DNA from: Acidimicrobiia bacterium
GTDB taxonomy: Bacteria; Actinomycetota; Acidimicrobiia; Acidimicrobiales; Aldehydirespiratoraceae
Length of the DNA stretch: 64,000 nucleotides
Assembly: GCA_022820805.1 (NCBI GenBank)
Contig: JAJEEV010000013.1
Span: 16,967 to 80,966, forward strand
Reading direction: 5' to 3'
Shown here: one piece after another, positions 44,746 to 59,125 of the stretch
Layout: each line of letters begins with the position of its first letter
Position numbering within the stretch: the stretch's first letter is position 1
Made by a program: the position numbers and the translations under genes
Notes under the pieces: model-generated
Told to the model about the DNA's origin: nothing
Seen by the model: only the letters and a program-made list of their open reading frames with translations
Databases searched by the model: none

Positions 44746-45138
44746 TCAGGCGTTCTTCTCGGAGGCCGATCCGGGAACGTAGGTGCCCTTGTTGCGCCAC
44801 AGCACGACCTCGTTGCCCCACGGGTCGCGGAAGCCGGCGTGGCGGGCGTCGAACTCCTCCCAGTAGACCTCGTCCCACAACTTGGTGGCACCCATCTCCA
44901 TGGCGAGGGCCAGCCGGTCGGGCGGGTCGTCGACCATCACGTAGATGCGGGGCACCGGTCCGCTGACCGGGGTGGTCTCCAGGTGGATGCCCAGGTTGGG
45001 CTTCACGCCCGGCAGCACCTCGTGGAACTCGCCGGCGGGACGGCGCTTGTACTTCCAGTCGAACAGCGTCTCGTAGAACTGCGAGGTGGCCTCGGGGTCG
45101 GGTGTGGGCAGGTCCACGAAGATCAGCGGGTTCACCAT
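44746..45138 (-). CDS. VOC family protein
   Basis: LIFVDLPTPDPEATSQFYETLFDW...FRDPWGNEVVLW. Paralog of 22948..23445. Confidence 0.75.
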   Translation of the reverse strand: MVNPLIFVDLPTPDPEATSQFYETLFDWKYKRRPAGEFHEVLPGVKPNLGIHLETTPVSGPVPRIYVMVDDPPDRLALAMEMGATKLWDEVYWEEFDARHAGFRDPWGNEVVLWRNKGTYVPGSASEKNA

Positions 45139-45336: not shown

Positions 45337-46668
45337 CTAGACGGGAGAGTCGAGCCGGGCGACAGCGGCGTCCCCGAGCGACACGAACCGCTCGTAGCCG
45401 GCGCGGTAGGCGTCGTCGGGCACGGGCTCGATGCGGGTCATCCGGGCCAGCGGCCACGAGTCCATGGCCTCGGCACCGACCCCGTCCCACCACTGGAGCG
45501 CCGCGCCCGCACACAGCGCGCAGCCGTGGGCCGAGAGCTGCTCCGGCCTCTCGGGCACGTCGACGGCCACCTCGAGCACCGACGCCTTGATCGAGCACCA
45601 CAGAGCGCTGAGTGCCGGGGAGCCCGCGCAGCACATCACGTCCATCTCCACACCCGACTCCTGAAGCTCCTCGTGGATGTGTCGCAGCCCATAACCGGCG
45701 GCCTCCAGCACGGCCCGGGCGATCTCTGCCGGTCCCGCCGCGAAGGTGAGCCCGTGCATCTCGCCCCGCAGGCGGGGCTCCCAGCGGGGCGACCGCTCGC
45801 CGTCGTGGTAGGGCAGCACCAGCACCCCGCCGGCGCCGGGCACCACGCCCTCCGCCATCGACAGCAGCTCGCTGAGCGGGCGGCCCGAGACATCCGACCA
45901 CCACTCCAGGAGCTGCCCGTGACCGTTGGTGGCCCCGCCGACCACCTTCACCCCGGCGACGGGGCTGAAGAACGCCATCATCTGATCGGGGAGGTCGGCC
46001 ACGTTCAGGGCGACGCCCAGGCCGCCGGTGCGGCCGCCGGGATCGTGACCTCGCCGGGGCGTGCACAGGCCGCCGGCCCAGAAGCTCATGTAGGCGTCGT
46101 TGGAGGCGCTCACCAGCGGAGTGCCCGCGGCCAGGCCCAGCGATCCGTCGCACTGCCCGATGACGGTGCCCACCTCCACCCGCTCCCCGTAGCCGGGGAT
46201 GGTCTCCTCGCCGGGCCAGAGTCCCTGGATGTCGCCCGCGCCCAGGCAGCGAAGGGCCCAATCCCAGATCTGGGCTCCCTCCAGCGGCCGTCCCACCTCG
46301 TCGCTGAGGAAGTCGAGCTGGGCGAGATGGTGCTCGGTGCGGCCCAGGCCGTTCCCGGCCGGATGGCGACAGGTCGCGGCCATTCCGGCGGTGGCGCTGC
46401 CCCCGGCACCCTCCAGCGGCACGGTCGTGGGGCTCTGCCCGCCGACCCCAACCGCGGCGATCTCCAATCCGGAATCGTCGACCCTGGCCAGCAGCCGGCC
46501 CAGGCCGTCGAGCCACGCCGCGGGATCGGCCCGGCCCGGGAGCCAGTCGCCGGCCCCCTCGAAGGCCTCGTACATCCAGAGCTTCACCTCGCCGTCGCGC
46601 GCCAGCGCCACGGCCCGGGCCCCGCCGGTACCCAGATCGACGCCGACCACCACCGGGCTCATCGCCAC
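45337..46668 (-). CDS. FGGY family carbohydrate kinase
   Basis: VVGVDLGTGGARAV N-terminal phosphate-1 motif. 443 aa with the two-domain layout. Confidence 0.85.
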   Translation of the reverse strand: MAMSPVVVGVDLGTGGARAVALARDGEVKLWMYEAFEGAGDWLPGRADPAAWLDGLGRLLARVDDSGLEIAAVGVGGQSPTTVPLEGAGGSATAGMAATCRHPAGNGLGRTEHHLAQLDFLSDEVGRPLEGAQIWDWALRCLGAGDIQGLWPGEETIPGYGERVEVGTVIGQCDGSLGLAAGTPLVSASNDAYMSFWAGGLCTPRRGHDPGGRTGGLGVALNVADLPDQMMAFFSPVAGVKVVGGATNGHGQLLEWWSDVSGRPLSELLSMAEGVVPGAGGVLVLPYHDGERSPRWEPRLRGEMHGLTFAAGPAEIARAVLEAAGYGLRHIHEELQESGVEMDVMCCAGSPALSALWCSIKASVLEVAVDVPERPEQLSAHGCALCAGAALQWWDGVGAEAMDSWPLARMTRIEPVPDDAYRAGYERFVSLGDAAVARLDSPV

Positions 46669-46693: not shown

Positions 46694-47710
46694 TCAGCCG
46701 ACCATCACCCGGTAGACGGGCTGCGAAACGGCCAGGGTCAGCGCATCGGCGACGTCGGCCAGCCGGTAGCGGGCTGTGACCAGACGGTCCAGGTCCCCGG
46801 CCAGCGCGCCCGACTGAAGCAGCCCCGCGGCTGTCCGCCAGTCATCGGGCTCCTGGCTGAACACCCCGATGATCGACAGCTCGTGATGGTGGATGCGGTC
46901 CGCGCCCACCGACGCCATCACATCCTTGGGGAAGGCCCCGTAGAGGACCACCGCGCCCGCGTCGTCGCACAGGTCCATGGCGAGCTCCACGGCACCCGGG
47001 GTGCCCGCGGTGACGAACACGATGTCGTGGTCGCCCTGCCAACCAGCCACGCCCGCGGGGTCGGCCACCCTGGTCGCCCCGGCCTCGGCCGCCTCGTCCA
47101 GGCGCTGGTCGCTCACGTCGATGAGGCCCACCGAGGCCGCCCCCCATGCCCGGCACAGGGCCAGGTGGAGCCGGCCCATGTAGCCCGCGCCGATGACCGC
47201 CACGCGGTCGCCGGACCGGAACCCGCTCAACCGCACCGAGTGGACCACGCAGGCCAGCGGCTCCCCCATGGCGGCGTGCTCGACATCGATCTCGCCCACG
47301 CAGTAGGTCTGGGCCGCGGCCACCCTCACCACCTCGGCCAGACCGGCACCCATCGAGATCGTGCCGTCGCTCAGGGTCCCGCCCTGGGGCCGCTTGCACA
47401 GTGCGCTGCGACCCCGCCGACACATGTGGCACGTGCCGCAGCGGGTGAGCAGGTCCATGGTGACCAAGTCGCCGATCCGCGGGGAACCGGGCAGGGTCGC
47501 CACCGCCTCGCCCGCCTCCACGACCCGCCCGGCGGCCTCGTGGCCGGGGGCGACGGGATAGATCGGCTTGGTCCCGGCGAACAGGCGCCGCTCCATGGTG
47601 CACAGGCCGCAGGTGCCCACCTCTATCAGCACGTCCTCGGGTCCGAGCCGGGGCCTGGGCTCGTCGCGGAGTTCCACTGCTCCCGGTCCGGTGACCACTG
47701 CTACCTGCAT
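46694..47710 (-). CDS. zinc-dependent MDR alcohol/polyol dehydrogenase
   Basis: Internal ATG at 47710 follows AGGAG. GTCGLC...PGHEAAGRV...CGTCHMCRRGRSALC; GAGYMG. Confidence 0.85.
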   Translation of the reverse strand: MQVAVVTGPGAVELRDEPRPRLGPEDVLIEVGTCGLCTMERRLFAGTKPIYPVAPGHEAAGRVVEAGEAVATLPGSPRIGDLVTMDLLTRCGTCHMCRRGRSALCKRPQGGTLSDGTISMGAGLAEVVRVAAAQTYCVGEIDVEHAAMGEPLACVVHSVRLSGFRSGDRVAVIGAGYMGRLHLALCRAWGAASVGLIDVSDQRLDEAAEAGATRVADPAGVAGWQGDHDIVFVTAGTPGAVELAMDLCDDAGAVVLYGAFPKDVMASVGADRIHHHELSIIGVFSQEPDDWRTAAGLLQSGALAGDLDRLVTARYRLADVADALTLAVSQPVYRVMVG

Positions 47711-47738: not shown

Positions 47739-49160
47739 CTAGGCACTGGGGATGTGGGGCCAGCAATGGGGGATCTCGAGCCCGGCCCGCTCCAGCAGCG
47801 ACTGCTGGGCCGCGGCGGCCTCAGCGCGAAGGGCGGCAAGGTCGACGGTTGCGCAGAAGCCGTCCCGGACAACGACGCGACCGGCCACCACCACGTCGCG
47901 CACCGACCGGCCGTCGGTGCCCCACACCAGATGCAGGACGGTCTCGCCCCGCGGCGTCCAGCCCACCGACGAAGTGTCGTGCACCACCAGGTCGGCCTGC
48001 TTGCCCGCCTCCAGGCTCCCGATCCGGTCGTCCATGCCGATGGCGGCCGCCCCGGCGATCGTGGCCAGCTCGAAGGCGGTGTGGGCCCCGAAGCGCTCGG
48101 GATCGACGCGGGTGTCGCGGGCCAGCCCCGCGGTGAGCGCGGCCGTCCTCAGGATGTCGGAAGTGTCGCCGGCGTTGGATGCGTCGCAGCCGAGGGCTAC
48201 CCGCCCGCCCCGCTCGACGATCTCGGCGTGGCGGCCCTGTCCCGACACCCCCTGACCAAGACGCAGGTAGGCCCACGGGCAGTAGGCGATCGCCGTCGAC
48301 GTGCTCAGCACCAGCTCCACCTCGGAGTCGTCCAGCCACACGCCGTGGCCCACCAGAAGGTGCGGCCCGAGAACGCCCAGAGCATCGAGGTGGACGAGGG
48401 GACGGCGGCCGGCGCGGTCCAGGTATCGCTCCGGGTCCGAGGACGTGGGCGACATGTGCATGGTGAGCCCGGTGCCGAGGTCCCGAGCCAGGTCCGCAGC
48501 TCCGGCCAGCAGCTCGTCGGAGGCGAGATCGTGGCCGACCAGGGTCACCCATCCCTCGACCAGCCCGCCCGAGCCGAGCGTGTCGACCACCTCGCGCTGG
48601 CGATCGAGGGTCTCCTGCGCCGGCGCGGTGAACGGGCCCTCGTCGATGTCCCAACCCCAGGTTCCCATCGTCCCGCGGATCCCGGCCCGGCGCATCCCGG
48701 CCGCGGCCCGGTACGGGTTGGCCACCGTGCCCGCCTCCACCACGGTGGTCACCCCGTTGGCCAGGTTCTCGACCGAGGACAGCACCGCCGAGAGCTCGTC
48801 GTCGTCGCCGGTGTGAGCGCCGTGGGCCGGAACCGACCACTCGAAGATCGAGGCCCCTGGGGGCAGCAGGTCCGGGATGCAGCTACGGATGAGCGGGTCG
48901 CCGGTGAGGTGCTGATGGGCGTTGACCATCCCGGGGGTGACCACGCAGCCGGTGGCGTCGATCATCTCGGCCTCCCGGTAGCGCCCGGCCAGCTCCGTGG
49001 TCGAGCCGACCGCGGCGATCACGTCTCCGGCAACGGCCACCGCACCGCCGACGAGGACCTCCCGGTGCGGGTTCATGGTCACGACGTCGCCGCCGGCCAC
49101 CAGGAGCGTCGCCGCGGCCGGCGAACCGGCGTTGTCGGCTGTCTCCGTGGTCACCGCCAC
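47739..49160 (-). CDS. amidohydrolase superfamily (ATZ/TRZ, deaminase-like), copy 2
   Basis: VTPGMVNAHQHL. Collinear with 34730..36124. Confidence 0.85.
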   Translation of the reverse strand: MAVTTETADNAGSPAAATLLVAGGDVVTMNPHREVLVGGAVAVAGDVIAAVGSTTELAGRYREAEMIDATGCVVTPGMVNAHQHLTGDPLIRSCIPDLLPPGASIFEWSVPAHGAHTGDDDELSAVLSSVENLANGVTTVVEAGTVANPYRAAAGMRRAGIRGTMGTWGWDIDEGPFTAPAQETLDRQREVVDTLGSGGLVEGWVTLVGHDLASDELLAGAADLARDLGTGLTMHMSPTSSDPERYLDRAGRRPLVHLDALGVLGPHLLVGHGVWLDDSEVELVLSTSTAIAYCPWAYLRLGQGVSGQGRHAEIVERGGRVALGCDASNAGDTSDILRTAALTAGLARDTRVDPERFGAHTAFELATIAGAAAIGMDDRIGSLEAGKQADLVVHDTSSVGWTPRGETVLHLVWGTDGRSVRDVVVAGRVVVRDGFCATVDLAALRAEAAAAQQSLLERAGLEIPHCWPHIPSA

Positions 49161-49274
49161 CGAGCATAGGCGGCAGCGCCCGTGCGAGAATCAGCGGGTG
49201 CAGGCCCGCCGAACGCCCGGAGCCACCGGCGGTCCGACCGCCGCGATGGTGACACCGACGAACAGGATGCAGCC

Positions 49275-50372
49275 TTGATCCTCAATCCCGGCCAGGGCCG
49301 CATCGAGAGCGATCACTACCTTCCGGTAACACCAGAGACCAGCCGCTGGGGCTGGTGGCCGAACCGGGAATCCACGCCGGTGATGTCGGTGGACAGCGGG
49401 ACGGCCGTCACCGTGGACACGCTGTCGCATGAGGGGATCCTCGAGGACCAGGGCCGCGACCCGGCGGCCTTCTTCGGCGTCCGCGGCATCGAGCGGTCCG
49501 GGGTCCTCCACGACGCCGTCGAGATGGCCCGGGATGTGCCCCACACGTTCGGAGTCGACGGCCCCCACGTGGTGACCGGCCCGATCGAGGTCCGGGGCGC
49601 CAGGGCCGGCGACCTGCTCCAGGTGGACGTGCTGGGCTTCGATCTGAGGGTCCCCTACGGCGTCACCTCGAACCGGCACGGGCTCGGGGCGCTGCCCGGC
49701 GAGATGCCCGACGGGTCCGAGCCTCCCGGCACGCTCACCGCCGGCACGCCGCACGGCACGGTGTCGGTGTTCACCGAGGTGGAGGGCCGCGCCGCCGCAG
49801 GCACGGCCGTGCTGCGCTACGGCGCCGGCAGCGCGCTGCGCTACCCGATCGCGCCGTTCCTCGGGATGATGGGTGTGTCCCCCGGCACCGACGATCCCGT
49901 GCCGACCAGGCCGCCGGGCCGCCACGGCGGCAACCTCGACATCAAACACCTGGTACAGGGATCCACGCTCTACCTTCCGGTCCAGGTGGCGGGCGCGGGC
50001 TTCGCGGTGGGCGACCCTCACTTCGCCCAGGGCAACGGCGAGGTGGCCCTCACCGCGCTGGAGGGCTCGCTGCGGGCGGACCTGCGGCTGTCGGTGCTGC
50101 AAGGTCCCGACGCCCGCCGGGCGTGCGGGCTGATCGAGAATCCCCTGGGCGAGACCGACGACCACTGGGTGCTGGTCGGTCTGCACGCCGACCTGGACGA
50201 GGCCATGCGGGAGGCGGTGCGGGAGGCCCTGCGCTTCTGCGAGAGCCGGCTCGGGCTGCCTCGCCACATCGCCTACACCTACCTGAGCTGCGCCGCCGAC
50301 TTCGAGGTGTCCCAGGTGGTGAACGACGTCAAGGGCGTCCACTGCCTCGTAGCCAAGCGGGACTTCAGGTAG
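49275..50372 (+). CDS. acetamidase/formamidase (FmdA/AmdA) family protein
   Basis: HYLPVTPETSRWGWW...VDSGTAVTVDT...VTGPIEVRGARAGDLLQVDV. Start is uncertain: TTG 49275 or GTG 49182. Confidence 0.75.
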   Translation: MILNPGQGRIESDHYLPVTPETSRWGWWPNRESTPVMSVDSGTAVTVDTLSHEGILEDQGRDPAAFFGVRGIERSGVLHDAVEMARDVPHTFGVDGPHVVTGPIEVRGARAGDLLQVDVLGFDLRVPYGVTSNRHGLGALPGEMPDGSEPPGTLTAGTPHGTVSVFTEVEGRAAAGTAVLRYGAGSALRYPIAPFLGMMGVSPGTDDPVPTRPPGRHGGNLDIKHLVQGSTLYLPVQVAGAGFAVGDPHFAQGNGEVALTALEGSLRADLRLSVLQGPDARRACGLIENPLGETDDHWVLVGLHADLDEAMREAVREALRFCESRLGLPRHIAYTYLSCAADFEVSQVVNDVKGVHCLVAKRDFR

Positions 50373-51585
50373 CGGCGTCCACCTCAGGGGCGTCGGGGGC
50401 GTCGGGACCCGAGGCGGGCACAGTGCCCCGGATGCGCAGCCAGCCGGCCAGCACCAGGGCCAGCACCGTCAGGCCGACGGCGGGCCAGGTCACGCCGACT
50501 CCGAACCTGTCGTAGAGCAGAGCGGCGGGGAGCGCGGCGATGGCGGCTCCGGCCACCTCGGCCGCGCCCATCAGGCCCAGCGCGGCCGCCTGGCGCCGCT
50601 CGGGGACGGCCCGGGCCACCACCGCGTGGGCCGCGGTGAAGCCGTAGCCGTCGGCGAAGCCCACCAACACCATCGCAACCACGATCGGGATCACGCCCGG
50701 GATCACGCCGTAGAACATCGTCAAGACGCTCACCACCACGAGCCCGGCCATCGTCACCCGCACCGGTCCTACCCGGTCGGCCAGCCGGCCGGCCCGCGTC
50801 CCCACCAGAATGATCGGGACGGCGACCATCGTGAAGGCGATCCCGGTGGCCACCGCGCCGGCGCCCCGGTCGGCGAACATCACCGGCAGCACCGCCTCCC
50901 AGGCACCGATCATCATGAAGTAGCCGCCGACCATGATCAGCGCGCCCTGAAGGCGCCGCATCGACAGCAGGTCGAACGACGTGGCCCGCCGGGAGGCGTC
51001 GAGCAGGCCCCGGTCGGGGGGCAGGCGCATCGCCACCGGAACGAACAGCAGCATGGCCCCGGCGAAGACTGCGAACGGCGTCCGGATCCCCCCGGCCCAC
51101 ACCAGCAGGGCGGTCAGCACCGGCCCGAAGATGAATCCCGTGGTCTCGGCCACGACCATCCGTCCGAGGTTCTCGCCGGCCCGGGCCGGATCATGGACCG
51201 AGGCGGCCCGGCGCACCCCCGGGAGAATGAGCCCTCCCGCGAATCCGAGAACGGCCCGGCTCAGCACCCAGACGGCCAGACCCTCGGCGAAGACCATCAT
51301 CAGCATGGCCGCCGCGCTGAGACCGATCCCCGCGGTGGCCATCATGCGGGCATGGCCCATGTCGGCCAGCCGGGCCAGCGTGACCTGCGACACGAACGCG
51401 GCCACGAAGCCGCTGGCCACCATGACTCCGATGCCGGTGCCGCTGAAACCGAACTCGTCGCGCAGCTCGCCGAGCACCGTGACGATCCCGCCAATGCCGC
51501 CGGCGGTCACCCCCATCAGCACCTGGAACGGCAGCAGGTCGCCACCGAAGCGCCGGCGCGGCGCGGCGCCGGGCCGACGGATCAT
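50365..51585 (-). CDS. MFS transporter
   Basis: 406 aa, about 12 predicted TM segments, LARLADMGHAR loop motif. Confidence 0.85.
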   Translation of the reverse strand: MIRRPGAAPRRRFGGDLLPFQVLMGVTAGGIGGIVTVLGELRDEFGFSGTGIGVMVASGFVAAFVSQVTLARLADMGHARMMATAGIGLSAAAMLMMVFAEGLAVWVLSRAVLGFAGGLILPGVRRAASVHDPARAGENLGRMVVAETTGFIFGPVLTALLVWAGGIRTPFAVFAGAMLLFVPVAMRLPPDRGLLDASRRATSFDLLSMRRLQGALIMVGGYFMMIGAWEAVLPVMFADRGAGAVATGIAFTMVAVPIILVGTRAGRLADRVGPVRVTMAGLVVVSVLTMFYGVIPGVIPIVVAMVLVGFADGYGFTAAHAVVARAVPERRQAAALGLMGAAEVAGAAIAALPAALLYDRFGVGVTWPAVGLTVLALVLAGWLRIRGTVPASGPDAPDAPEVDAAT

Positions 51586-51589
51586 GATG

Positions 51590-51895
51590 TCAGACCTCTT
51601 TGAGCAGCAGGTCGCTGGTCTGGCCCGAGACGAACAGCTCGCTGCCCGCCTTGAGGATCTCGCGGTAGCCGTCCTCGGTGGGCAGCCGCTCCAGGAACTC
51701 GTCGAGGGTCCCCAGGTCGGGGGCGTCGATCATCCAGTACACCTTGCCGTAGGAGCCGTAGGACTCCATCCACGACGTGACCTGCACCCGGTCGGGGTCG
51801 GCCGCGGCCATGTAGCCGGTGTAGCGCTGGATCCACTCCCGGACCCGGGCCACATCGCTGGAATCGACCTGGGCCTTGCGAACCATCCTCACCAT
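51590..51895 (-). CDS. small conserved-looking hypothetical protein (101 aa)
   Basis: Coding-like GC3 bias. Sits 4 nt before the MFS gene and 7 nt after the DUF1989 gene. I recognise no motif. Confidence 0.5.
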   Translation of the reverse strand: MVRMVRKAQVDSSDVARVREWIQRYTGYMAAADPDRVQVTSWMESYGSYGKVYWMIDAPDLGTLDEFLERLPTEDGYREILKAGSELFVSGQTSDLLLKEV

Positions 51896-51902
51896 CTCGA
51901 AG

Positions 51903-52541
51903 TCACTTGCCTTCCCATACTTCCAAGCCGATCCGCTTGGGCTCGCCCCCGTTGGACGCCGAAGTCTCGCTGGGACAGGCCGAAACCGCGGCCAGCACGT
52001 CGATCTCGGCTCTCAGGTCGATGTAGTCGCCGGCCTGGGCCGGCGACTCCCGGAACACCAGGGTGTGCTCGTCCACCACATCGGTGCACATGAAGACATT
52101 GAACACGTCCGGGACCAGGTCGGGGTCCACCCCCCAAGGCTGGACCGCCTCCTCGAGGTTGCCCTGGCACGTCCGGTGCCCCGAGTCGATGCCGTCCCGG
52201 ATGGCGTACACGCCGGCCGAGCAGCGTCCCCCGTTCCAGGCGAAGTGGACCCCCACCGGGTCGTCGATCACGGTCAGCATGGGCCGCTCGTAGGGAGGGC
52301 GCGACCACAGGGTGGTGATGCGCCGCATCGTCCCGGTCCCGGCCAGCATGTTCAGCGCCACCGTCTGGCCGGCGTGATAGCCCTCGCGGGGATTGTCCAG
52401 CGCCAGGAACGTGGAGTCGGCCACCTGCGGACCGTCCAGCGCCACGATGCGCAGCACCTGGCCGGCCCGCACCTCCACGGCGCGGCCCTCGCATCGGGGC
52501 ACCACCACTCGCTCGACTGGGCCCGCTTCGTCGCGACTCAA
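51903..52541 (-). CDS. DUF1989 (urea-carboxylase-associated-like) family protein
   Basis: VEVRAGQVLRIVALDGPQVADSTF...HRTCQGNLEEAV...NVFMCTDV matches my recollection of the DUF1989 pattern. Confidence 0.7.
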   Translation of the reverse strand: MSRDEAGPVERVVVPRCEGRAVEVRAGQVLRIVALDGPQVADSTFLALDNPREGYHAGQTVALNMLAGTGTMRRITTLWSRPPYERPMLTVIDDPVGVHFAWNGGRCSAGVYAIRDGIDSGHRTCQGNLEEAVQPWGVDPDLVPDVFNVFMCTDVVDEHTLVFRESPAQAGDYIDLRAEIDVLAAVSACPSETSASNGGEPKRIGLEVWEGK

Positions 52542-52554
52542 CGATCCGCCCCGG

Positions 52555-53877
52555 TCAAGCGGCCACCTCGCGGCTCACCTCGCCGTTGCGGGCCGTGGTC
52601 AGCCTCGCCTCCGACGACATCAACTCCAGCCAGGCCCTCAGGTAGCCCCGCATCGGCCCCTCATGAGTGACCGGAGCCTTGGCCACGCCGCCGGCGGTGA
52701 CCTCGGCGACCTCGTGGTCCAGCCCCTTGCTCATGTCCACCCACTCCACCTCGGCGATGGACAGGCCCTCCTGGCAGCGCTCGAACAGCTCCAGGTCGTC
52801 GGGGTTGCCGAGGCTGGGGAAGTCCTCGGCGATGCGCATGCGCAGCACGTTCACCTCGTCGGGAGCGCCAGCGGCGGCCGCCACCCACGTGTGCAGGCGG
52901 GTCTCGCCCACGCTGACAGGATCCACCGTCTCCAGGTGGTTCCCCTTGATCAGCAGGTTGGGGAAGATCGACAGGTTGACCATCGAGCCCGGCGCAACCT
53001 CGAGGATGTCGGCGGCCTCGTCGCCGAAGCTCTGCTCTATCTGCTCGGCGTACCACTCCCGACCCGGCACCGGCCGCTGCGTCTGCCAGAAGGACTGATT
53101 CAGGCCGGGCCGCTGATCCACGAACATGTGCCCGTTGCCCAGATCGGAGCCGTACATGCCGGTGTCGTCGGGGCTGCTCTTGAACTGCGACAGCGAGCGG
53201 GCCCCGCCGTGCTGGCGCTCGTTGAGCAGCACGAAGCTGCGGTGAGCGAACGTGGGATGCAGACCGTCGGCCGCGTTGTCCCAGGCCAGCTTCCAGTTGC
53301 CGCGGTAGATCATGCGCTGGCAGTTGCGCACCTCGATCCGGCCCGACGGCGAGCGGTCGACGAACTCGTCGATCAGCGGACCGGCCGGACCCAGCCACTC
53401 GGCGAGGCTCGGCGCGTCGAGGTTGAGCGTGCCGAAGATCAGGCCCCGGTACAGGCCCAGCCTCGGCACCTGGGCCAGGCCATGGTCCTCGAGGTGGAAG
53501 TCGGCCGGGTAACCGTCGGCGAAGGGCAGGTTCACCAGGTCGCCGCGATTGGAGTAGGTCCAGCCGTGGTAGGAGCACTGGAAGCGCCGGGCCGAGCCGC
53601 ACTCGGACTGGCACACGGTCGAGGCCCGGTGGGCGCAGCGGTTGAACAGGGCGTGCAGGTCGCCGTCATCGTCGCGGGTGATGATGAGCGGGCGCAGCCC
53701 CAGGCGGGTCGTGATGAAGTCGTTGGGGTCGGGCACCTGGCTCTCATGGGCCAGGTACACCCAGGTGCCGCCGAACACCTTCGACATCTCCGCGGCGAAG
53801 ACATCGCTGTCGACGTAGATGGAACGGTGCACCCGGTGGGGCTGGACCAGGTTGTCGAGATCGTTGGTGGCGGTCAT
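52555..53877 (-). CDS. Rieske non-heme iron oxygenase, alpha subunit
   Basis: Rieske CAHR...CSYHGW; mononuclear iron DNAADGLHPTFAH. Confidence 0.9.
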   Translation of the reverse strand: MTATNDLDNLVQPHRVHRSIYVDSDVFAAEMSKVFGGTWVYLAHESQVPDPNDFITTRLGLRPLIITRDDDGDLHALFNRCAHRASTVCQSECGSARRFQCSYHGWTYSNRGDLVNLPFADGYPADFHLEDHGLAQVPRLGLYRGLIFGTLNLDAPSLAEWLGPAGPLIDEFVDRSPSGRIEVRNCQRMIYRGNWKLAWDNAADGLHPTFAHRSFVLLNERQHGGARSLSQFKSSPDDTGMYGSDLGNGHMFVDQRPGLNQSFWQTQRPVPGREWYAEQIEQSFGDEAADILEVAPGSMVNLSIFPNLLIKGNHLETVDPVSVGETRLHTWVAAAAGAPDEVNVLRMRIAEDFPSLGNPDDLELFERCQEGLSIAEVEWVDMSKGLDHEVAEVTAGGVAKAPVTHEGPMRGYLRAWLELMSSEARLTTARNGEVSREVAA

Positions 53878-53908
53878 GTCGGCATCTCGATCAGCTCGGC
53901 CTGTGCAT

Positions 53909-54472
53909 CTATAGCACGAACGAGAACTTGCGGACGTCGCCGCGGCTGTCCACCAGCCGCACGATCTTGAACCTGACCGACCAGTGCTCGCCCAGGTCTG
54001 CGAGCACGAAGTCGTTGCGGCTCGCGAACGGGATCAGCCGGTCCTTGCGGTACTCCCACACCACCGTCGTGCACCGGGCCAGCGTGTCGCCGCCGTCGAG
54101 GGGCCAGGCCTCGACATTGGAGACGGTGCGGCAGGTGCGCGACGGCGGCTCCTGGGCGTGGGCCCACCCGGTCTCCAGCAGCCCGATGCGGTCGTCCATG
54201 CGGCGGCGATCGTCGAGCAGGTACGAGACCTGGCCCCGGGGATCGCCGGTTGGATCGAGGGGAACCCAGTACACGCAGTCGTCGGTGAAGCGTTGAAGCC
54301 AGTCGCGGTAGCGACGGTCATCCAGCAGCCGGGCCTCGTGGTGGAGGGCCTGTTCGGCCGCGGGCCGCAGGGCGGGATCGCCGGGTCCTCTCTCGGCCTC
54401 GCCGGATGCCAGCAGATCCACGAGCCGCTGGTACAGGCGATCGTCCACCGGTGACGCCGCCTGCGGGTCCAT
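53909..54472 (-). CDS. ring-hydroxylating oxygenase beta subunit (NTF2 fold)
   Basis: Internal ATG at 54472, 10 nt after the upstream stop. HHEARLLDDRRYRDWLQRFTDDCVYWVP. Confidence 0.85.
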   Translation of the reverse strand: MDPQAASPVDDRLYQRLVDLLASGEAERGPGDPALRPAAEQALHHEARLLDDRRYRDWLQRFTDDCVYWVPLDPTGDPRGQVSYLLDDRRRMDDRIGLLETGWAHAQEPPSRTCRTVSNVEAWPLDGGDTLARCTTVVWEYRKDRLIPFASRNDFVLADLGEHWSVRFKIVRLVDSRGDVRKFSFVL

Positions 54473-54482
54473 CAGCAGCCCC

Positions 54483-55277
54483 CTACCCGCCCTCTCCGGC
54501 GCCGTGGACGGCCTCCAGCAGGCGGCCGACGAGCGCGGCCGGGTCGTCGGACCCCCAGACATTGCGACCGAAGGCCACGCCCGCGCCGCCGGCCTCGACC
54601 ACGCCGCGGGCCAGCGCCACCACCTGGTCCTCGTCGTCGACCTTGGGACCCCCGAGGGCCACCACCGGCGCCGGGCAAGCCTCGGCCACCGCCGCGAACT
54701 CCTCGGGGGGTCCGGGGCACATGGTCTTGACGATGTCGGCTCCGAGCTCGACCGCGAGCCGGGCGCCGCGCCCGACGTTCTCGGCGGTCCAGGGCACGGT
54801 CCGGGGCCAGCCGCCGGGAATCGACTCGGCCATGACCGGCAGGCCGAGCAGCTCGCACTCGGCGGCGAGCCTCGCGAGGCGTTGCAGCGAGTGCTGTTCG
54901 TCGGGCGTGCCCGGGAACACCATGATCACCACCGCGTCGGCGCCGACGACCATGGCCTGCTCGGCCGAGTACAGCAGCGACGTCGTGTCGCTGGCCGGCG
55001 GGTCGCCCAGGTCCGAGATCCCGCCGTCGATGCGCAGCACCAGTCCGGCGCCGGCGAAGGCCTCGGGGCGGGCCCGGGCCAGCTGCCAGGTGGCGAGCAC
55101 CGCGTCGGGTCCGCCCCTCGCGATGGACTCCGCCGCGGCGGGCGCCACACCCATGCCCATGTAGGCGGGATGGTCCATGGCCACGAACACGGCCCGCCCG
55201 TCGGCGCGGAAGATGTGGCGGAACCGCCGGCGCTTGCCGGCGGACACGGCCGAGAGCGGAGCACTCGTGCTGTTCAT
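54483..55277 (-). CDS. class I aldolase, DhnA/DeoC-LacD family
   Basis: VFVAMDHPAYMG...GADIVKT (Schiff-base Lys context)...FGRNVW. Confidence 0.8.
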   Translation of the reverse strand: MNSTSAPLSAVSAGKRRRFRHIFRADGRAVFVAMDHPAYMGMGVAPAAAESIARGGPDAVLATWQLARARPEAFAGAGLVLRIDGGISDLGDPPASDTTSLLYSAEQAMVVGADAVVIMVFPGTPDEQHSLQRLARLAAECELLGLPVMAESIPGGWPRTVPWTAENVGRGARLAVELGADIVKTMCPGPPEEFAAVAEACPAPVVALGGPKVDDEDQVVALARGVVEAGGAGVAFGRNVWGSDDPAALVGRLLEAVHGAGEGG

Positions 55278-55304
55278 GGGTCGATCGGTCCGTTTCTGTG
55301 AGTG

Positions 55305-56486
55305 TCAGTGAACCGGAAGCGGCGCGGTGAACTCGTCGTCGGCCAGGGGGGTGGCGACGTCGGCGCGCACCGTCTTCATCACGTGCGCGGCCCGGCCCTC
55401 CCAGGTGGAGGCCGGACCCACCCGGTAGAACGGCGACCGCAGGTTCTCCATGAGCACGGTCACCATGTCGGTGTCCTCGCGGTTGGTGACGGCGAGGCGG
55501 TCCAGCTCGAAGTCCTGCTCCTCTATCGACTTGTCGATCCCGTAGATGCGGCTGAACAGCCGGGTGCGGTCCGGGGCGATGGGGTCGGCCCGCACCAGGA
55601 TCAGCTGCGTCGGGTAGGGCAGCGGGGTGAGGTTGGGGTAGATGTAGTCGGCGTAGTGGCCCAGCAGCTGCTCGGTGGTCAGGTCGGTGCGGCCTCCGGT
55701 GGCGTCCTCCTCGTCGGAGTGGGGCTTGAAGCCGCTGCACGTGCGGCCCTCGAAGCGCACGATGGTGTCCATCTGCTTGCGCAGCTTGTTGAGGCGCCGG
55801 TGCACGAAGCGCACGTGGTAGTCGTCGTTGGAGTTCTCGGCGAAGGCCTTCCAGTTGATGGCGTAGGTCTGGTCGAGCTCGCGGTGGTAGCGGGTGAACC
55901 TGTCGAACTTGTAGAGGTCGTAGCGCTCGGCCAGCGGGGCGATCCACTCCCGGAACGGCGGGGCCTTGCGGGACAGGCAGCCGAACACGAGCTTGTCCCA
56001 GGCCAGCTCGATGCGGATCTCCACCAGGCCGTAGTCCTCGGTGGGCATGCCGTCGGGATACATGCGGGCCCGGTCGGGGATGCCGATCAGCTGCCCGTCG
56101 ATGGCGTAGGCCCAGTTGTGGTAGGGGCAGGTCATGGTCTTGCCGCAGTTGCCGGCCGGCTCGAACAGCAGCCCGGAGGCCCGGTGGCGGCAGTTGTTGA
56201 GGAAGCCCCGCACCGAGCCGTCCTCCTGGCGGATCACCATCACCGGCTGGTAGCCGATGGTGCCGGTGATGTAGTCGCCGGGCTCGGCCAGGTCCTCGGT
56301 GTCGCCCAGCCACACCCAGGACCGCCCGAACACCCGCACCATCTCGAGGTCGAACAGCTCCTGGTCGAACACCTCGTAGGGCTGGAGCATCGGGCTGTCC
56401 ACCGGGGCGTGCACCAGGCCGGCGGTCTCGTCCACCCGGCGCTGGAGGCGCTCCACCGTCGGCTCGGCCTGCAGGTCCGCGATCAC
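55305..56486 (-). CDS. Rieske (2Fe-2S) oxygenase, GbcA/CntA/Stc2-like single-component alpha type
   Basis: CRHR...CPYHNW; NSNDDYHVRFVH iron site. Confidence 0.9.
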   Translation of the reverse strand: MIADLQAEPTVERLQRRVDETAGLVHAPVDSPMLQPYEVFDQELFDLEMVRVFGRSWVWLGDTEDLAEPGDYITGTIGYQPVMVIRQEDGSVRGFLNNCRHRASGLLFEPAGNCGKTMTCPYHNWAYAIDGQLIGIPDRARMYPDGMPTEDYGLVEIRIELAWDKLVFGCLSRKAPPFREWIAPLAERYDLYKFDRFTRYHRELDQTYAINWKAFAENSNDDYHVRFVHRRLNKLRKQMDTIVRFEGRTCSGFKPHSDEEDATGGRTDLTTEQLLGHYADYIYPNLTPLPYPTQLILVRADPIAPDRTRLFSRIYGIDKSIEEQDFELDRLAVTNREDTDMVTVLMENLRSPFYRVGPASTWEGRAAHVMKTVRADVATPLADDEFTAPLPVH

Positions 56487-56574: not shown

Positions 56575-56967
56575 TCAGTGCAGAAGTTCGACGTCGCAAC
56601 GGATGCCGGGAGCGTGTGCCAGTCGCTGGTCGTGAGTCAGCAACGTCGCACCTGTGGTCTCGGCCAGCGCCACGTAGGCCGCGTCGTACACCGTGAGATT
56701 GTCCCGCAGCTCCCAACATCGCTCCAGCAGCAGTTCGTGGGCGAAGCGGACAATCGGAAGGACAGCCAACTGTCGCAACCCGCTCCTGCCCGCCGTCGCC
56801 GAGATCTCGCCCCGGCGAACGAGGGCCCGCAGGGCCGAAGCGACCTCAAGATCGAGAAGGTGGGGAGCCAGCGACGCATCCCGGGCCATGCGGCGCACGG
56901 TCTGAAGGCTGCGGTCGCTGGAACCGGCCACAGCCTCGGTGACCGCGCTGGCGTCGACGACGATCAA
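56575..56967 (-). CDS. vapC: PIN-domain toxin VapC
   Basis: TTG start at 56967 overlaps the antitoxin stop (TTGA). IVVDASAV, LEVASAL, YDAAYVALAE, LTHDQRL. Confidence 0.8.
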   Translation of the reverse strand: MIVVDASAVTEAVAGSSDRSLQTVRRMARDASLAPHLLDLEVASALRALVRRGEISATAGRSGLRQLAVLPIVRFAHELLLERCWELRDNLTVYDAAYVALAETTGATLLTHDQRLAHAPGIRCDVELLH

Positions 56968-57206
56968 CGCGACTCTCGATCGGCCCGGATGACCTCCACG
57001 ATTGCGGCCGGGTCCACGTGCGTCTCGCCGTGGGCGAGGACCTCGGCTCGCTTGCGGGCCAGCAGTTCCTCCGCGCTGGCGACAGCCGCCTGCCTGCACA
57101 CCGAGTCGAGCATGTACTGCTGGAGCGACTGGCCCGCGGCCGCGGCCCGGACCCTCAGCACCCGATGGACATCATCGGGCACGTGCTTGATCTGGATAGT
57201 GGCCAT
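56964..57206 (-). CDS. vapB: ribbon-helix-helix antitoxin VapB (FitA-like)
   Basis: Internal ATG at 57206. MATIQIKHVPDDVHRVLRVRAAAAGQSLQQYMLD. Confidence 0.75.
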   Translation of the reverse strand: MATIQIKHVPDDVHRVLRVRAAAAGQSLQQYMLDSVCRQAAVASAEELLARKRAEVLAHGETHVDPAAIVEVIRADRESR

Positions 57207-57260: not shown

Positions 57261-57376
57261 CGGGTCCAACTGGAGAAGGGGACTCTGGGGTCGCCTTCAG
57301 GGCCTGGTCGCGACGGCGACGTGATGGAATGCCATGCTTGGCTCGTGCTAGGCAACGACGCGATGGCGTGGGGGAG

Positions 57377-59125
57377 ATGACTGCACGAGCCGACGAGGCC
57401 ATCCGTTACCAACCCGACGAGCCGTGCCCCCCGCTTATCGCGCTGGGCGTCGGGCTCCAGGGAGTCATGCTCGTGCTGGCGACGATCGTGCTGATCGTGG
57501 CCATCACCGCCCGGGCCGGCAACCAGGACGAGAGCTACCTCACATGGGCTGTGTTCGCGTCCCTGATCATCGCCGGAGGACTCACCGCGCTGCAGGCCGG
57601 CCGTTTCGGGCGGCTCGGCGCCGGACACATCCTGATCATGGGCCCGACCCCCAACTATGTGGCGGTCTCGGTGCTGGCACTGACCGCGGGCGGGCCGGCA
57701 CTGCTTGCCAGCCTCACCGTCGCCGCGGCGCTCTTCTACATCGCGCTGTCTCTGTGGCTCCCGTTGCTGCGCAGGATCATCACCCCGGTGGTGTCGGGCA
57801 CGGTGCTCATGCTGATCGCAGCCACAATCCTGCCGGTCGCGCTCGGGCGGGTCACCGAGGTGCCCGAGACCGCACCGGCCGCGGCCGGCCCTGTCGTGGC
57901 GCTGGTAACCCTTGTCGCGGTCGTGGCGCTGGCGCTACGCGTCTCGGGGTCTTGGCGCGTCTGGTCACCGCTGATGGGGATCGCGGCCGGTTGCGTCGTG
58001 GCTGTCATCTTCGGGGCATACGAGCTCCAACCGATTCGCGACGCTCGATGGTTCGGACTACCCGAGAGCGGGTTCCCCGGAATCGAGTTGACCCCCGGCG
58101 TCGAGTTCTGGGCCCTGCTGCCCGCCTTCGTGGTGATCGCCCTGGTGGGCAGCGTCAAGAACATCGGGGACTGCGTCGCCATCCAGCAGGTCTCATGGCG
58201 CAGGCCGCGGGTGACCGACTTCCGGCTGGTGCAGGGGTCACTCAACGCCAACGGTGCCGGCATCCTGCTCTCCGGCCTCGCTGGCACGCCGCCGACATCC
58301 GTCTACTCGTCGTCCAGCCCGCTGCTGGTCAACCTCACCGGCGTGGCCGCTCGCCGTGTCGGCTACGCCATCGGCGCGGCAATGGTCGTGCTGGCGGTCC
58401 TGCCCAAGGTGACCGCCGTACTGCTGGCCATCCCGAGCCCGGTCATGGGCGCCTACCTCCTCACCGCCATCGGCGTGCTGTTCGTGAGCGGCGTACAGAC
58501 AGTGGTGGCCGACGGTCTCGACAAGGGCAAGGCCCTCACAATCGGCATTGCCTTCTCGGTGGGGATGGGCCTGGACAACCAGACGATCGGGGCTGACCTG
58601 CTGGGCGAGACGTGGGGTCCGCTGGTCGACAACGGCATGCTGGCCGGCGCCCTGACCGCGGTCGTGATGACCCGGTTCGCGGATCTCACCAGCCGTCGCC
58701 GGCGGGCCCGCCTGAAGGTCGGCCTCCACCCGTCGGCGGTCAGCGAGATAGACGAGTTCCTCAGCGGCTTCGCAGCCGACATCGGGTGGGACGACGCGGC
58801 CGCACGGCGGCTGCGCTCCGCCGGCGAGGAAACGCTGATGAACCTGCTACGAGAGGGGGACGACCGCTCGGTCGCCGATGCGCCCAGCCTGATAGTCGCG
58901 GCCCGCCATAGCGGCGCAGCGGTGGAGATGGAGTTCCTAGCCGTCTTCGACGAGCAGAACCTCGAGGATCGGCTGGCACACCTGAGCGAGGAATCCCAGA
59001 GCACCGCAGGCCTGGAGGACGGCGAGGTCTCGCTCAGGCTGCTCCGGCAATACGCCTCGTCGGTGCACCACCAGAAGTTCCACGGACTCGACGTGGTCAC
59101 CGTGCAGGTCAAGGCGGCGGGCTAG
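57377..59125 (+). CDS. NCS2/SLC23-type permease fused to a soluble C-terminal regulatory-like domain, copy 2
   Basis: Collinear paralog of 3812..5611 (IRYQPDEPCPP..., IPSPVMGAYLLTAIGVLF, tail RLRSAGEETLMNLL...MEFLAVFDEQNLEDRL...GEVSLRLLRQY...GLDVVTVQV). Confidence 0.8.
   Translation: MTARADEAIRYQPDEPCPPLIALGVGLQGVMLVLATIVLIVAITARAGNQDESYLTWAVFASLIIAGGLTALQAGRFGRLGAGHILIMGPTPNYVAVSVLALTAGGPALLASLTVAAALFYIALSLWLPLLRRIITPVVSGTVLMLIAATILPVALGRVTEVPETAPAAAGPVVALVTLVAVVALALRVSGSWRVWSPLMGIAAGCVVAVIFGAYELQPIRDARWFGLPESGFPGIELTPGVEFWALLPAFVVIALVGSVKNIGDCVAIQQVSWRRPRVTDFRLVQGSLNANGAGILLSGLAGTPPTSVYSSSSPLLVNLTGVAARRVGYAIGAAMVVLAVLPKVTAVLLAIPSPVMGAYLLTAIGVLFVSGVQTVVADGLDKGKALTIGIAFSVGMGLDNQTIGADLLGETWGPLVDNGMLAGALTAVVMTRFADLTSRRRRARLKVGLHPSAVSEIDEFLSGFAADIGWDDAAARRLRSAGEETLMNLLREGDDRSVADAPSLIVAARHSGAAVEMEFLAVFDEQNLEDRLAHLSEESQSTAGLEDGEVSLRLLRQYASSVHHQKFHGLDVVTVQVKAAG

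Follow-up and report, generated by a model that had tools for sequence, protein, structure and literature searches.

A conserved 12-gene locus of a sponge-symbiotic 'Candidatus Aldehydirespirator' genome that may link exchangeable oxygenases to a kinase/aldolase route

The locus considered here raises the question of what process could call for two different Rieske oxygenase systems, an aldolase, a DUF1989 protein and a transporter, all encoded in one tight row of seven minus-strand genes. It lies in a 64,000-nucleotide stretch of DNA (the window; C14:16967-80966; approximately 70% G+C) of a sponge-symbiotic 'Candidatus Aldehydirespirator' metagenome-assembled genome (MAG) of the order Acidimicrobiales. 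Near-identical loci are present in public MAGs labelled 'Candidatus Aldehydirespirator', Aldehydirespiratoraceae or Acidimicrobiales. The family Aldehydirespiratoraceae is the former placeholder UBA11606, within which sponge-symbiotic lineages have been described (PMC11706023). The seven genes (g1-g7) encode (i) an alpha-only Rieske oxygenase, designated Rieske1, (ii) a DhnA-type class I aldolase of the Pfam DeoC family, (iii, iv) the beta and alpha subunits of a ring-hydroxylating oxygenase (RHO), (v) a DUF1989 protein, (vi) a small protein with a predicted dimeric alpha+beta barrel (DABB) fold and (vii) a transporter of the major facilitator superfamily (MFS). In our judgement there is an even chance that they represent the left half of a catabolic mosaic of about 12 kb, in which an oxygenase step feeds a kinase/aldolase route to dihydroxyacetone phosphate (DHAP).

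A sequence-only reading of the window had described the seven genes, spaced by 4-31 nt, as one operon. The open reading frames (ORFs) and their spacing were confirmed (gaps from g1 to g7 of 27, 10, 31, 13, 7 and 4 nt). The G+C content at third codon positions is 0.87-0.98 in the six ORFs that pass the filter applied (> 0.82), the RHO beta ORF not passing it. Judged by gene spacing only, g1-g7 are probably co-transcribed; consensus scans for promoters and terminators revealed no promoter-like site, and terminators at chance level. The conserved unit, however, is larger than the row of seven. It is a 12-gene locus of approximately 12 kb (44.7-56.5 kb of the window), which also encodes an acetamidase/formamidase-family protein (FmdA), a COG0402-type amidohydrolase (deaminase), a Zn-dependent polyol-type dehydrogenase, an FGGY-family sugar kinase and a VOC (glyoxalase-fold) protein. 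The 3' end of g7 overlaps that of the FmdA gene by 8 nt.

Conservation of the gene order, which the earlier reading had named as a check, was found both inside and outside the genus. The order g1-g6 is identical in all 20 same-genus loci fetched and in one family-level relative, and it recurs in approximately 30 public MAG loci; the MFS gene is missing from two loci (L003 and L044). In most of the 20 same-genus loci the genes of FmdA, the amidohydrolase, the dehydrogenase, the FGGY kinase and the VOC protein follow. The position of FmdA is kept across the genus, and the gene is also found near the cluster in L114 and L132. The VOC protein shows 87-97% identity across the genus and 67-78% in Streptomyces-type loci. 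In other genomes, the interval between the MFS and FmdA genes has received insertions encoding either a cupin together with a CoA-transferase or an MMPL-type transporter. In two same-genus genomes (L036:16595-18139 and L038:14116-15483), the amidohydrolase and dehydrogenase genes are separated by a transposase-like ORF (455-514 aa), the rest of the block being intact.

Eight other loci carry, on one strand, the order amidohydrolase-dehydrogenase-FGGY-VOC-VOC-Rieske1-(VOC-SnoaL)-DeoC, with an aldo-keto reductase gene on the opposite strand. They belong to Thermocatellispora tengchongensis, Streptosporangium sp., two Streptomyces spp., Sphaerisporangium flaviroseum, Embleya sp. and two Acidimicrobiales MAGs. 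Most of their proteins share 62-78% identity with those of the window, the FGGY kinase and the second VOC protein 44-50%. The deaminase stands alongside Rieske1 in Streptomyces-type loci (62-66% identity); these often continue with genes for a 2-oxoacid:ferredoxin oxidoreductase, a hydantoinase A/B pair, a CoA ligase and an RraA-like protein. Marine Actinomycetota MAGs show the order Rieske1-VOC-SnoaL-DeoC. Of the 45 loci that do not belong to the Aldehydirespirator-type group, 18 have a DeoC gene no more than 10 kb from Rieske1, in most cases immediately downstream of it. The core of Rieske1, aldolase, deaminase, dehydrogenase, kinase and VOC protein is rare but strongly conserved.

The aldolase gene had been described as inserted between oxygenase genes. 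The order is as claimed, but it is better read in the opposite sense: Rieske1 and DeoC genes, which stand close together in Streptomyces-type, marine and other loci, constitute an old pair, behind which the separable RHO beta/alpha-DUF1989(-DABB) unit was placed later. In a rough FastTree phylogeny, whose branch support values were not inspected, the DeoC-linked Rieske1 context is basal, and the clade of the window is sister to two clades of sponge-symbiont paralogues. A sister genus of the same family (G695, L162) encodes DeoC, RHO beta, RHO alpha, DUF1989, DABB, dehydrogenase and FGGY kinase, with neither Rieske1 nor the MFS transporter. Two metagenomic contigs (L001 and L002) encode DeoC, DABB, dehydrogenase, FGGY kinase and a TauD-family dioxygenase. 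They are syntenic with L162, sharing the flanking genes of a divergent amidohydrolase, an HpcH aldolase, an M24 peptidase and a choline-sulfatase, and so the RHO beta/alpha pair plus DUF1989 and the TauD-type enzyme are alternatives at one locus. The window holds Rieske1 in addition to the RHO pair and DUF1989. Within the genus, reduced variants retain Rieske1-DeoC-MFS (L088) or Rieske1-MFS (L078). In a further one (L084:11207-11299; MAG SB0673_bin_3) the stretch that separates Rieske1 from the MFS gene retains no more of DeoC than its first 31 codons, a deletion scar left by a recent loss of g2-g6 in one lineage. The dehydrogenase of the sister genus (L162:8222-9231; also L150) aligns as two overlapping pieces in different frames, with a frameshift near codon 286, and is either a pseudogene or the product of an assembly error.

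We propose that the locus is built of two modules. While its gene content, conservation, modularity, folds and metal sites are observed, the order of the reactions and the catabolic direction are those that we infer. Module 1, the constant one, would comprise the DhnA-type aldolase, a small cofactor-less alpha+beta protein (DABB here, SnoaL elsewhere), the Zn-dependent polyol dehydrogenase and the FGGY kinase, usually together with the COG0402 deaminase and VOC proteins. In this module (i) the dehydrogenase would oxidize a chain resembling a sugar or polyol, giving a ketose or diketone, (ii) the FGGY kinase would phosphorylate the product, (iii) the DABB or SnoaL protein would isomerize the phosphorylated compound, (iv) the aldolase would cleave it into DHAP and a short aldehyde, and (v) VOC proteins and neighbouring aldo-keto reductase and aldehyde dehydrogenase would dispose of the aldehyde. 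Module 2 would be an exchangeable oxygenase: Rieske1 in most actinomycete loci, the RHO beta/alpha pair plus a Zn-binding DUF1989 protein in the sister genus, a TauD-type enzyme in the syntenic relative, and both Rieske systems in the window. By hydroxylating the substrate on a ring or beside a heteroatom, this oxygenase may take away or alter a substituent that would otherwise keep the skeleton out of Module 1. Hydroxylation beside a heteroatom, with release of the substituent, is typical of TauD-type and GbcA/CntA-type enzymes. The substrate would be imported by the MFS carrier here and by a Bmp/PnrA-type ABC system near the cluster in other lineages. Both oxygenases would obtain electrons in trans, candidate sources being a Rieske-type ferredoxin and reductase encoded on contig C7 and the reductase halves of three fusion proteins.

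Table 1. Genes of the 12-gene locus (positions in the window) and candidate electron-transfer genes elsewhere in the genome (contig C7, C12, C43 or C46 given before the position)
Feature	Position	Strand	Remarks
g1, Rieske1, alpha-only Rieske non-haem-iron oxygenase	55305..56486	-	393 aa, GTG start; Rieske + Ring_hydroxyl_A
g2, DhnA-type class I aldolase	54483..55277	-	264 aa; Pfam DeoC/LacD family
g3, RHO beta subunit	53909..54472	-	187 aa from ATG at 54472; Ring_hydroxyl_B 80 bits
g4, RHO alpha subunit, benzoate/anthranilate/aniline-dioxygenase group	52555..53877	-	440 aa; Rieske + Ring_hydroxyl_A
g5, single-domain DUF1989 protein	51903..52541	-	212 aa, TTG start; Pfam DUF1989
g6, DABB (ferredoxin-like) protein	51590..51895	-	101 aa; predicted fold
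g7, MFS transporter	50365..51585	-	406 aa; Pfam MFS_1 119 bits
Acetamidase/formamidase-family (FmdA) protein	49182..50372	+	convergent with g7; FmdA_AmdA 97.5 bits
COG0402-type amidohydrolase (deaminase)	47739..49160	-	473 aa; Amidohydro_1 119 bits
Zn-dependent polyol-type dehydrogenase	46694..47710	-	338 aa from ATG at 47710; ADH_N + ADH_zinc_N
FGGY-family sugar kinase, divergent N-terminal half	45337..46668	-	443 aa; FGGY_C 88.5 bits
VOC (glyoxalase-fold) protein, last gene of the conserved block	44746..45138	-	Glyoxalase_6 + Glyoxalase; start set at 45138
Rieske-reductase fusions	C12:~25.9-27.6 kb, C12:~34.5-36.2 kb, C43:~44.0-45.7 kb		outside the window
Rieske-type ferredoxin, directly followed by FAD-type ferredoxin reductase	C7:624-2184	-	104 aa and 417 aa; contig of 3,844 bases
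Rieske protein adjoining Fer2 protein	C46:103864-104591		114 aa and 117 aa

The proteins were assigned by Pfam and NCBIfam profile searches, read against the family cut-offs. Identification of the g2 product as a DhnA-type class I aldolase with a DeoC/LacD-family TIM barrel holds: it matches PF01791 (DeoC) with 93 bits (cut-off 23.8), and its best NCBIfam matches are DhnA-type models, led by the ADH-synthase subfamily (173 bits, under the cut-off of 241) and including the archaeal class I fructose-bisphosphate (FBP) aldolase (113 bits). It misses the equivalog cut-offs of TIGR01949 (141.6/299), NF006081 (LsrF; 109.7/297) and NF041223 (BagB/FevI; 110.8/500). The nearest solved structure is MJ0400 (2qjg; E = 1.7e-34), and the only solved relatives found were MJ0400, a Thermoproteus FBP aldolase and LsrF. 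The motif GADIVKT, read from the translation, resembles the lysine motif found in enzymes of the MJ0400 type and may hold a Schiff-base lysine. The substrate of MJ0400 is 6-deoxy-5-ketofructose-1-phosphate, which derives from 5'-deoxyadenosine.

The product of g6 has no Pfam or NCBIfam match. Its AlphaFold model (pLDDT 92) gave 77 Foldseek matches in the PDB at E <= 1e-3, headed by NIPSNAP (5k9f; TM 0.79) and followed by SnoaB, ABM proteins, olivetolic acid cyclase (OAC) and LsrG (2gff/3qmq; TM approximately 0.67). On this model, the protein is predicted to belong to the DABB superfamily (beta-alpha-beta-beta-alpha-beta, ferredoxin-like), an assignment that holds at the superfamily level only. 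The gene was found in this genome and in 26 of 36 same-genus genomes (not in the other 10), and the search of 24 other families of the order gave one marginal match only (E = 7e-4). In other lineages a SnoaL gene precedes the aldolase gene at the place matching g6; one small cofactor-less protein seems to have been replaced there by another, non-orthologous one.

FGGY kinase, DABB/ABM-fold isomerase and DhnA-type aldolase-fold protein are the three folds that also stand together in the Lsr system (LsrK, LsrG and the thiolase LsrF), with which the proposed route shares the logic of phosphorylation, isomerization and cleavage to DHAP. However, all three proteins of the locus score far below the Lsr orthologue cut-offs (LsrF, 110 vs 297; LsrK, 25 vs 528), the g6 product is nearer to NIPSNAP and SnoaB than to LsrG, and the Lsr system has no oxygenases, deaminase or Zn-dependent dehydrogenase. 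The best NCBIfam match of the FGGY kinase is XylB (100 bits, under the cut-off of 380). The dehydrogenase is nearest to the models of threonine 3-dehydrogenase and scyllo-inosose 3-dehydrogenase, both under cut-off, and the deaminase to 5'-deoxyadenosine deaminase (218 bits, under the cut-off of 522), its best solved structure being a methylthioadenosine/S-adenosylhomocysteine (MTA/SAH) deaminase (4f0r).

Upstream of g1, on the same strand and 88 nt away, there is a gene for a PIN-domain (VapC-like) protein (56575-57099), present in only some of the genomes. Beyond it lies a divergent plus-strand gene (57329-59125) encoding a xanthine/uracil-family permease fusion, which often accompanies the locus within the genus.

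Rieske1 carries the Rieske domain (PF00355; 57.5 bits, cut-off 20.3) and Ring_hydroxyl_A (PF00848; 65.3 bits, cut-off 24.9). Its Rieske residues (C99/H101/C120/H123) and iron-site residues (D221/H224/H229/D338, a 2-His-1-carboxylate site) are invariant across 24 homologues, as are more than one third of its 393 positions in the alignment of these 24 members. Its length falls within the alpha-only size class (approximately 390-420 aa), and in Streptomyces-type and marine loci its gene stands without a Ring_hydroxyl_B partner. The label GbcA/CntA-like, given to it earlier, had to be dropped: the enzyme is an orthologue of neither GbcA nor CntA. Its NCBIfam matches, HcaE (136 bits) and GbcA (NF058607; 112 bits against a cut-off of 670), are far under the cut-offs. 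The CntA structure 6y8j aligns with residues 42-229 only (E = 1e-18), and the matches to Stc2, CntA and 4qup (annotated as 'Monoxygenase; demethylase') extend little past the Rieske domain. The AlphaFold structure predicted for Rieske1, modelled with 24 close homologues, has a pLDDT of 46.5. With GbcAB, CntAB, Stc2 and NdmA/B, alpha-only enzymes that cleave beside a heteroatom, Rieske1 shares its approximate size, the lack of a beta subunit of its own and the intact Rieske and 2-His-1-carboxylate sites; however, no GbcB/CntB-type reductase gene adjoins g1.

A pattern scan of 185,579 species genomes yielded 109 relatives of Rieske1, of which 80 were retained; the homologues in these 80 loci are 68-98% identical to it. 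No orthologue was found in an even sample of 400 Actinomycetota genomes, which, together with the tight invariance of the sequence, indicates a rare but strongly constrained family. Paralogues of 75-78% identity occur in sponge-symbiont Acidimicrobiales (L052, L099, L100, L102, L104 and L105), in a block encoding ETF alpha/beta, a DMGDH-like enzyme, FTHFS, an MTHFR-like protein, a luciferase-type monooxygenase, a P450 and two to three SBP_bac_5 binding proteins. The block may represent a separate demethylation locus.

The second Rieske system is a different one, as had been claimed: g1 and g4 products share only about 30% identity, and g4 encodes the alpha subunit of a benzoate/aniline-type alpha-beta enzyme (PF00355, 64.5 bits, cut-off 20.3; PF00848, 47.9 bits, cut-off 24.9), in whose translation the iron-site motif DGLHPTFAH can be read directly. 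BenA (NCBIfam benA, 258 bits against a cut-off of 781) and anthranilate dioxygenase are its best models, with scores far under the equivalog cut-offs. The best solved structures are 9o71 and 7yls/8h2t, the last two being those of the auxin dioxygenase IadDE. Homologues from Rhodococcus and Arthrobacter (50-53% identity) are encoded with a glutamine synthetase (GS)-like protein, a glutamine amidotransferase (GATase), a ferredoxin and a reductase, and in Arthrobacter additionally with a catechol 1,2-dioxygenase; these clusters are of the aniline-dioxygenase type. The GS-like and GATase partners of such systems are not encoded in the 12-gene locus. The g3/g4 pair thus shares the alpha-beta architecture of BenAB, AntAB, the aniline dioxygenases TdnA1A2/AtdA3A4 and IadDE, and differs from them in the order beta then alpha, in the lack of a reductase or catechol-cleavage enzyme in the locus, and in the coupling of g4 to DUF1989. 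The pair also stands together in two loci that lack Rieske1 (L144 and L162).

The product of g5 matches DUF1989 (PF09347) with 139.7 bits (cut-off 27). Its residues C107, H122, C125 and C189 correspond, in an alignment, to those that form the Zn site of trimethylamine N-oxide (TMAO) demethylase (Tdm), as defined in PMC12560246. All three cysteines and the histidine are therefore kept, although Tdm is a DUF1989 + GcvT protein of approximately 760-800 aa and the g5 product a 212-aa single domain without GcvT (NF053776, 80 bits vs 1100). Carboxyguanidine deiminase, CgdAB (Schneider et al. 2020, cited in PMC11271267), is composed of two paralogous DUF1989 subunits encoded beside a urea/guanidine carboxylase. 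The locus has one DUF1989 gene and no carboxylase was found in it; scores against the urea-carboxylase-associated models are low (TIGR03424, 84 vs 285; TIGR03425, 55 vs 206). The sequence-only reading had drawn attention to the occurrence of DUF1989 outside urea-carboxylase clusters. Adjacency of DUF1989 and Rieske genes is not unique to this locus and recurs in several lineages.

Unlike in Tdm or CgdAB, the constant neighbour of g5 is a Rieske alpha subunit. In L003 the start of the DUF1989 gene overlaps the stop of the RHO alpha gene. In two loci (L112 and L115) the genes of RHO alpha, DUF1989, Rieske1, VOC and SnoaL are co-directional; in six Ilumatobacteraceae loci the DUF1989 gene is divergent to Rieske1, and in two other Acidimicrobiia genomes it either adjoins an unrelated alpha-only Rieske gene or is separated from it by a few hundred bases. 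One protein, P0180 (655 aa; from one metagenomic contig of 213,536 bases), consists of an RHO alpha subunit, 87% identical to that of g4, fused in frame to DUF1989 through a linker of about 20 residues; as a single record, it could be a real fusion or the result of a stop codon lost by a sequencing error. A second DUF1989 gene of the genome (C22:16695-17249; L165:8642-9295), whose product is 35% identical to that of g5, is situated in a different co-directional row and is followed by a 226-aa ORF.

A bolder form of our proposal, which we regard as unlikely, is that the locus specifies an undescribed O2-dependent route, in which interchangeable oxygenases unlock substituted sugars, polyols or nucleoside-like compounds for the DHAP route, and in which the Rieske alpha subunit and the Zn-dependent DUF1989 protein form a new two-enzyme pair for C-N (or C-S) cleavage. 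The heteroatom or a neighbouring carbon might, for example, be oxygenated and the product then be split in a Tdm-like lyase step. DUF1989 would in that case gain a third function besides TMAO demethylation and carboxyguanidine deimination.

No match to Fer2, NAD_binding_1, Pyr_redox_2 or a small Rieske-ferredoxin was found within the window, which agrees with the earlier statement that an electron-transfer partner is missing nearby. Likewise, the insertions between the MFS and FmdA genes and elsewhere in related genomes encode no ferredoxin or reductase. This absence does not set the operon apart, because the 3.4-Mb genome contains 39 Rieske-domain and 14 Ring_hydroxyl_A matches and few reductases, all of the latter outside the window; electron supply in trans is the rule in this organism. 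The only FNR-type modules found in a search of the genome for orphan reductases are the C-terminal halves of three fusion proteins (approximately 585 aa or more), in which an N-terminal Rieske oxygenase part precedes a phthalate-dioxygenase-reductase-like module (FNR-like + plant-type 2Fe-2S). The ferredoxin and reductase encoded on contig C7 are a candidate pair to be shared by the numerous orphan Rieske oxygenases. In Streptomyces and Embleya (L136, L137, L142 and L143) the aldolase gene is directly followed by genes for a KorA/KorB-like 2-oxoacid:acceptor oxidoreductase (TIGR03710, 658 bits, above the cut-off), which could supply reduced ferredoxin to the oxygenase in soil actinomycetes.

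As for the substrate, a nucleoside-like or N-heterocycle-substituted deoxy sugar or polyol is our leading, tentative guess. The deaminase and the formamidase-like enzyme, the Bmp/PnrA-type importers and the adjacent xanthine/uracil-family permease point weakly to a nucleoside-like or N-heterocycle-linked compound; an importer of the Bmp/PnrA type recurs near the cluster in other lineages. Further recurrent neighbours are a methylglyoxal-reductase-like aldo-keto reductase, an aldehyde dehydrogenase, a lactate-dehydrogenase-like FMN enzyme, a glyoxylate-reductase-like 2-hydroxyacid dehydrogenase and glyoxalase-fold proteins, a set that fits the disposal of a C2 or C3 carbonyl product.

Several observations weigh against the proposed route. 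Conservation within the genus largely reflects shared descent. Every enzyme is under the curated cut-off of any named orthologue family, and hence no substrate can be transferred by homology. One variant (L078) keeps the dehydrogenase and the FGGY kinase without the aldolase, which weakens a strict dependence of kinase on aldolase. Some related loci encode an O-methyltransferase and SnoaL, more typical of biosynthesis, and close paralogues of Rieske1 stand in a C1/methyl-group context (DMGDH-like enzyme, ETF, FTHFS and P450).

The alternatives were weighed against the same evidence. One of them is a specific variant of 5'-deoxynucleoside or deoxy-sugar disposal, i.e. an oxygen-dependent 'DHAP shunt', in which the deaminase would act on an adenosine-type 5'-modified nucleoside, the dehydrogenase and the kinase would lead to a ketose phosphate that is split into DHAP and an aldehyde, and Rieske1 would cleave off a heteroatom-linked substituent, e.g. 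methylthio. The affinities of the deaminase (5'-deoxyadenosine and MTA/SAH deaminases) and of the aldolase (archaeal MJ0400) would suit such a route, as would the nucleoside-like importers, the permease and the neighbours resembling glyoxalase, methylglyoxal reductase and lactate/glyoxylate dehydrogenases. The known shunt and 5-deoxyribose salvage (MtnK/DrdK, MtnA/DrdI and Ald2/DrdA; PMC6079011, PMC10986504) have the same kinase/isomerase/aldolase logic, convert a modified sugar to DHAP and a short aldehyde as proposed here and, like the locus, are linked to adenosine-type deaminases and nucleoside uptake. Their aldolases, however, are class II, their kinases are not of the FGGY family, their isomerase is MtnA-type and they need no oxygenase, whereas here a class I aldolase and an FGGY kinase are joined by a single Rieske system or by two. 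The locus was seen to contain neither a nucleosidase nor a phosphorylase nor an MtnA-type isomerase, and all scores are under the orthologue cut-offs. Moreover, the by-products of S-adenosylmethionine are universal, so that a housekeeping salvage cluster should be common, while Rieske1 was absent from the 400 Actinomycetota genomes sampled. We consider this variant quite unlikely.

A similarly low probability is given to a mere juxtaposition, in which functionally unrelated units were packed together by rearrangement in a gene-dense symbiont: a demethylase (Rieske1), a module for sugar phosphates, a dioxygenase of aromatic amines or aromatic acids with its DUF1989 protein, and a transporter. 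It would explain why each unit occurs without the others (L001, L052, L078, L088, L144 and L162), why insertion sequences and other insertions are found inside the block in some genomes, and why Rieske1 paralogues and g4 relatives turn up in methyl-group and aniline-dioxygenase-type contexts, respectively. It does not account for the re-association of the same families in independent arrangements: Rieske1 adjoins DeoC across classes, RHO alpha, DUF1989, Rieske1, VOC and SnoaL form one row in L112 and L115, DUF1989 is divergent to Rieske1 in Ilumatobacteraceae, and in L162 the RHO beta-RHO alpha-DUF1989 unit falls precisely at the junction of DeoC and DABB. The narrow spacing of 4-31 nt is conserved as well. 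A biosynthetic role of the core, finally, appears very unlikely. The DhnA-type enzyme would then condense substrates, as do GriI/BagB or the archaeal ADH synthase, to an amino- or hydroxy-carbocycle or an aromatic ring, which would be tailored by the oxygenases, SnoaL/DABB, O-methyltransferase and reductases and exported by the MFS protein. The aldolase does match the ADH-synthase and BagB/FevI models, related loci contain SnoaL, O-methyltransferase, aldo-keto reductase and flavin-reductase genes, and DABB and SnoaL folds are common among tailoring enzymes. Against this, no GriH/DHQ-synthase-II-type cyclase, carrier protein, ligase or part of a polyketide synthase or nonribosomal peptide synthetase was seen in the block, the oxygenase module is exchangeable, and the deaminase, formamidase, FGGY kinase, importer-type ABC systems and aldehyde/hydroxy-acid dehydrogenases point to breakdown.

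Two known types of catabolism were considered and rejected. Riboflavin/lumichrome catabolism combines a polyol chain, a heterocycle and Rieske enzymes, but the published Nocardioides cluster (P450, thiamin-dependent decarboxylase, xanthine oxidase and LumABCD) does not match. Sulfoglycolysis or sulfonate cleavage was suggested by the TauD and choline-sulfatase genes next to the sister-genus locus; neither gene is present in the window or in Streptomyces-type loci, and no sulfofructose-phosphate-aldolase model was matched by the aldolase.

A full-text search of the literature revealed no published pathway with this gene set, as the sequence-only reading had anticipated: no paper found combines Rieske enzyme, FGGY kinase, class I aldolase and amidohydrolase, and none ADH synthase with a Rieske enzyme. 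The only paper found to name Aldehydirespirator does not treat the cluster, and DUF1989 is named in just three papers of the literature searched. All the parts come from known families; the literature searched describes neither their combination nor the exchange of oxygenases nor the pairing of Rieske enzymes with DUF1989. The suggestion of an undescribed oxidative catabolic route for a sugar-derived or N-methylated compound is partly supported and must be extended to a unit larger than the operon.

Sponge-symbiotic Acidimicrobiia encode very many Rieske oxygenases, and the locus provides a handle on the substrate of one of them. Its core is present, at 62-78% identity, in the culturable Thermocatellispora tengchongensis DSM 45615 and Sphaerisporangium flaviroseum JCM 16908, and in several Streptomyces and Streptosporangium isolates; the function could therefore be sought by ordinary genetics in these strains and then transferred to the uncultured symbionts. 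Only two activities of the DUF1989 domain are known, and its repeated partnership with Rieske enzymes, including one apparent natural fusion, suggests a further, new role. If the substrate is derived from the host or from seawater, the locus would add a defined nutritional link to the sponge symbiosis.

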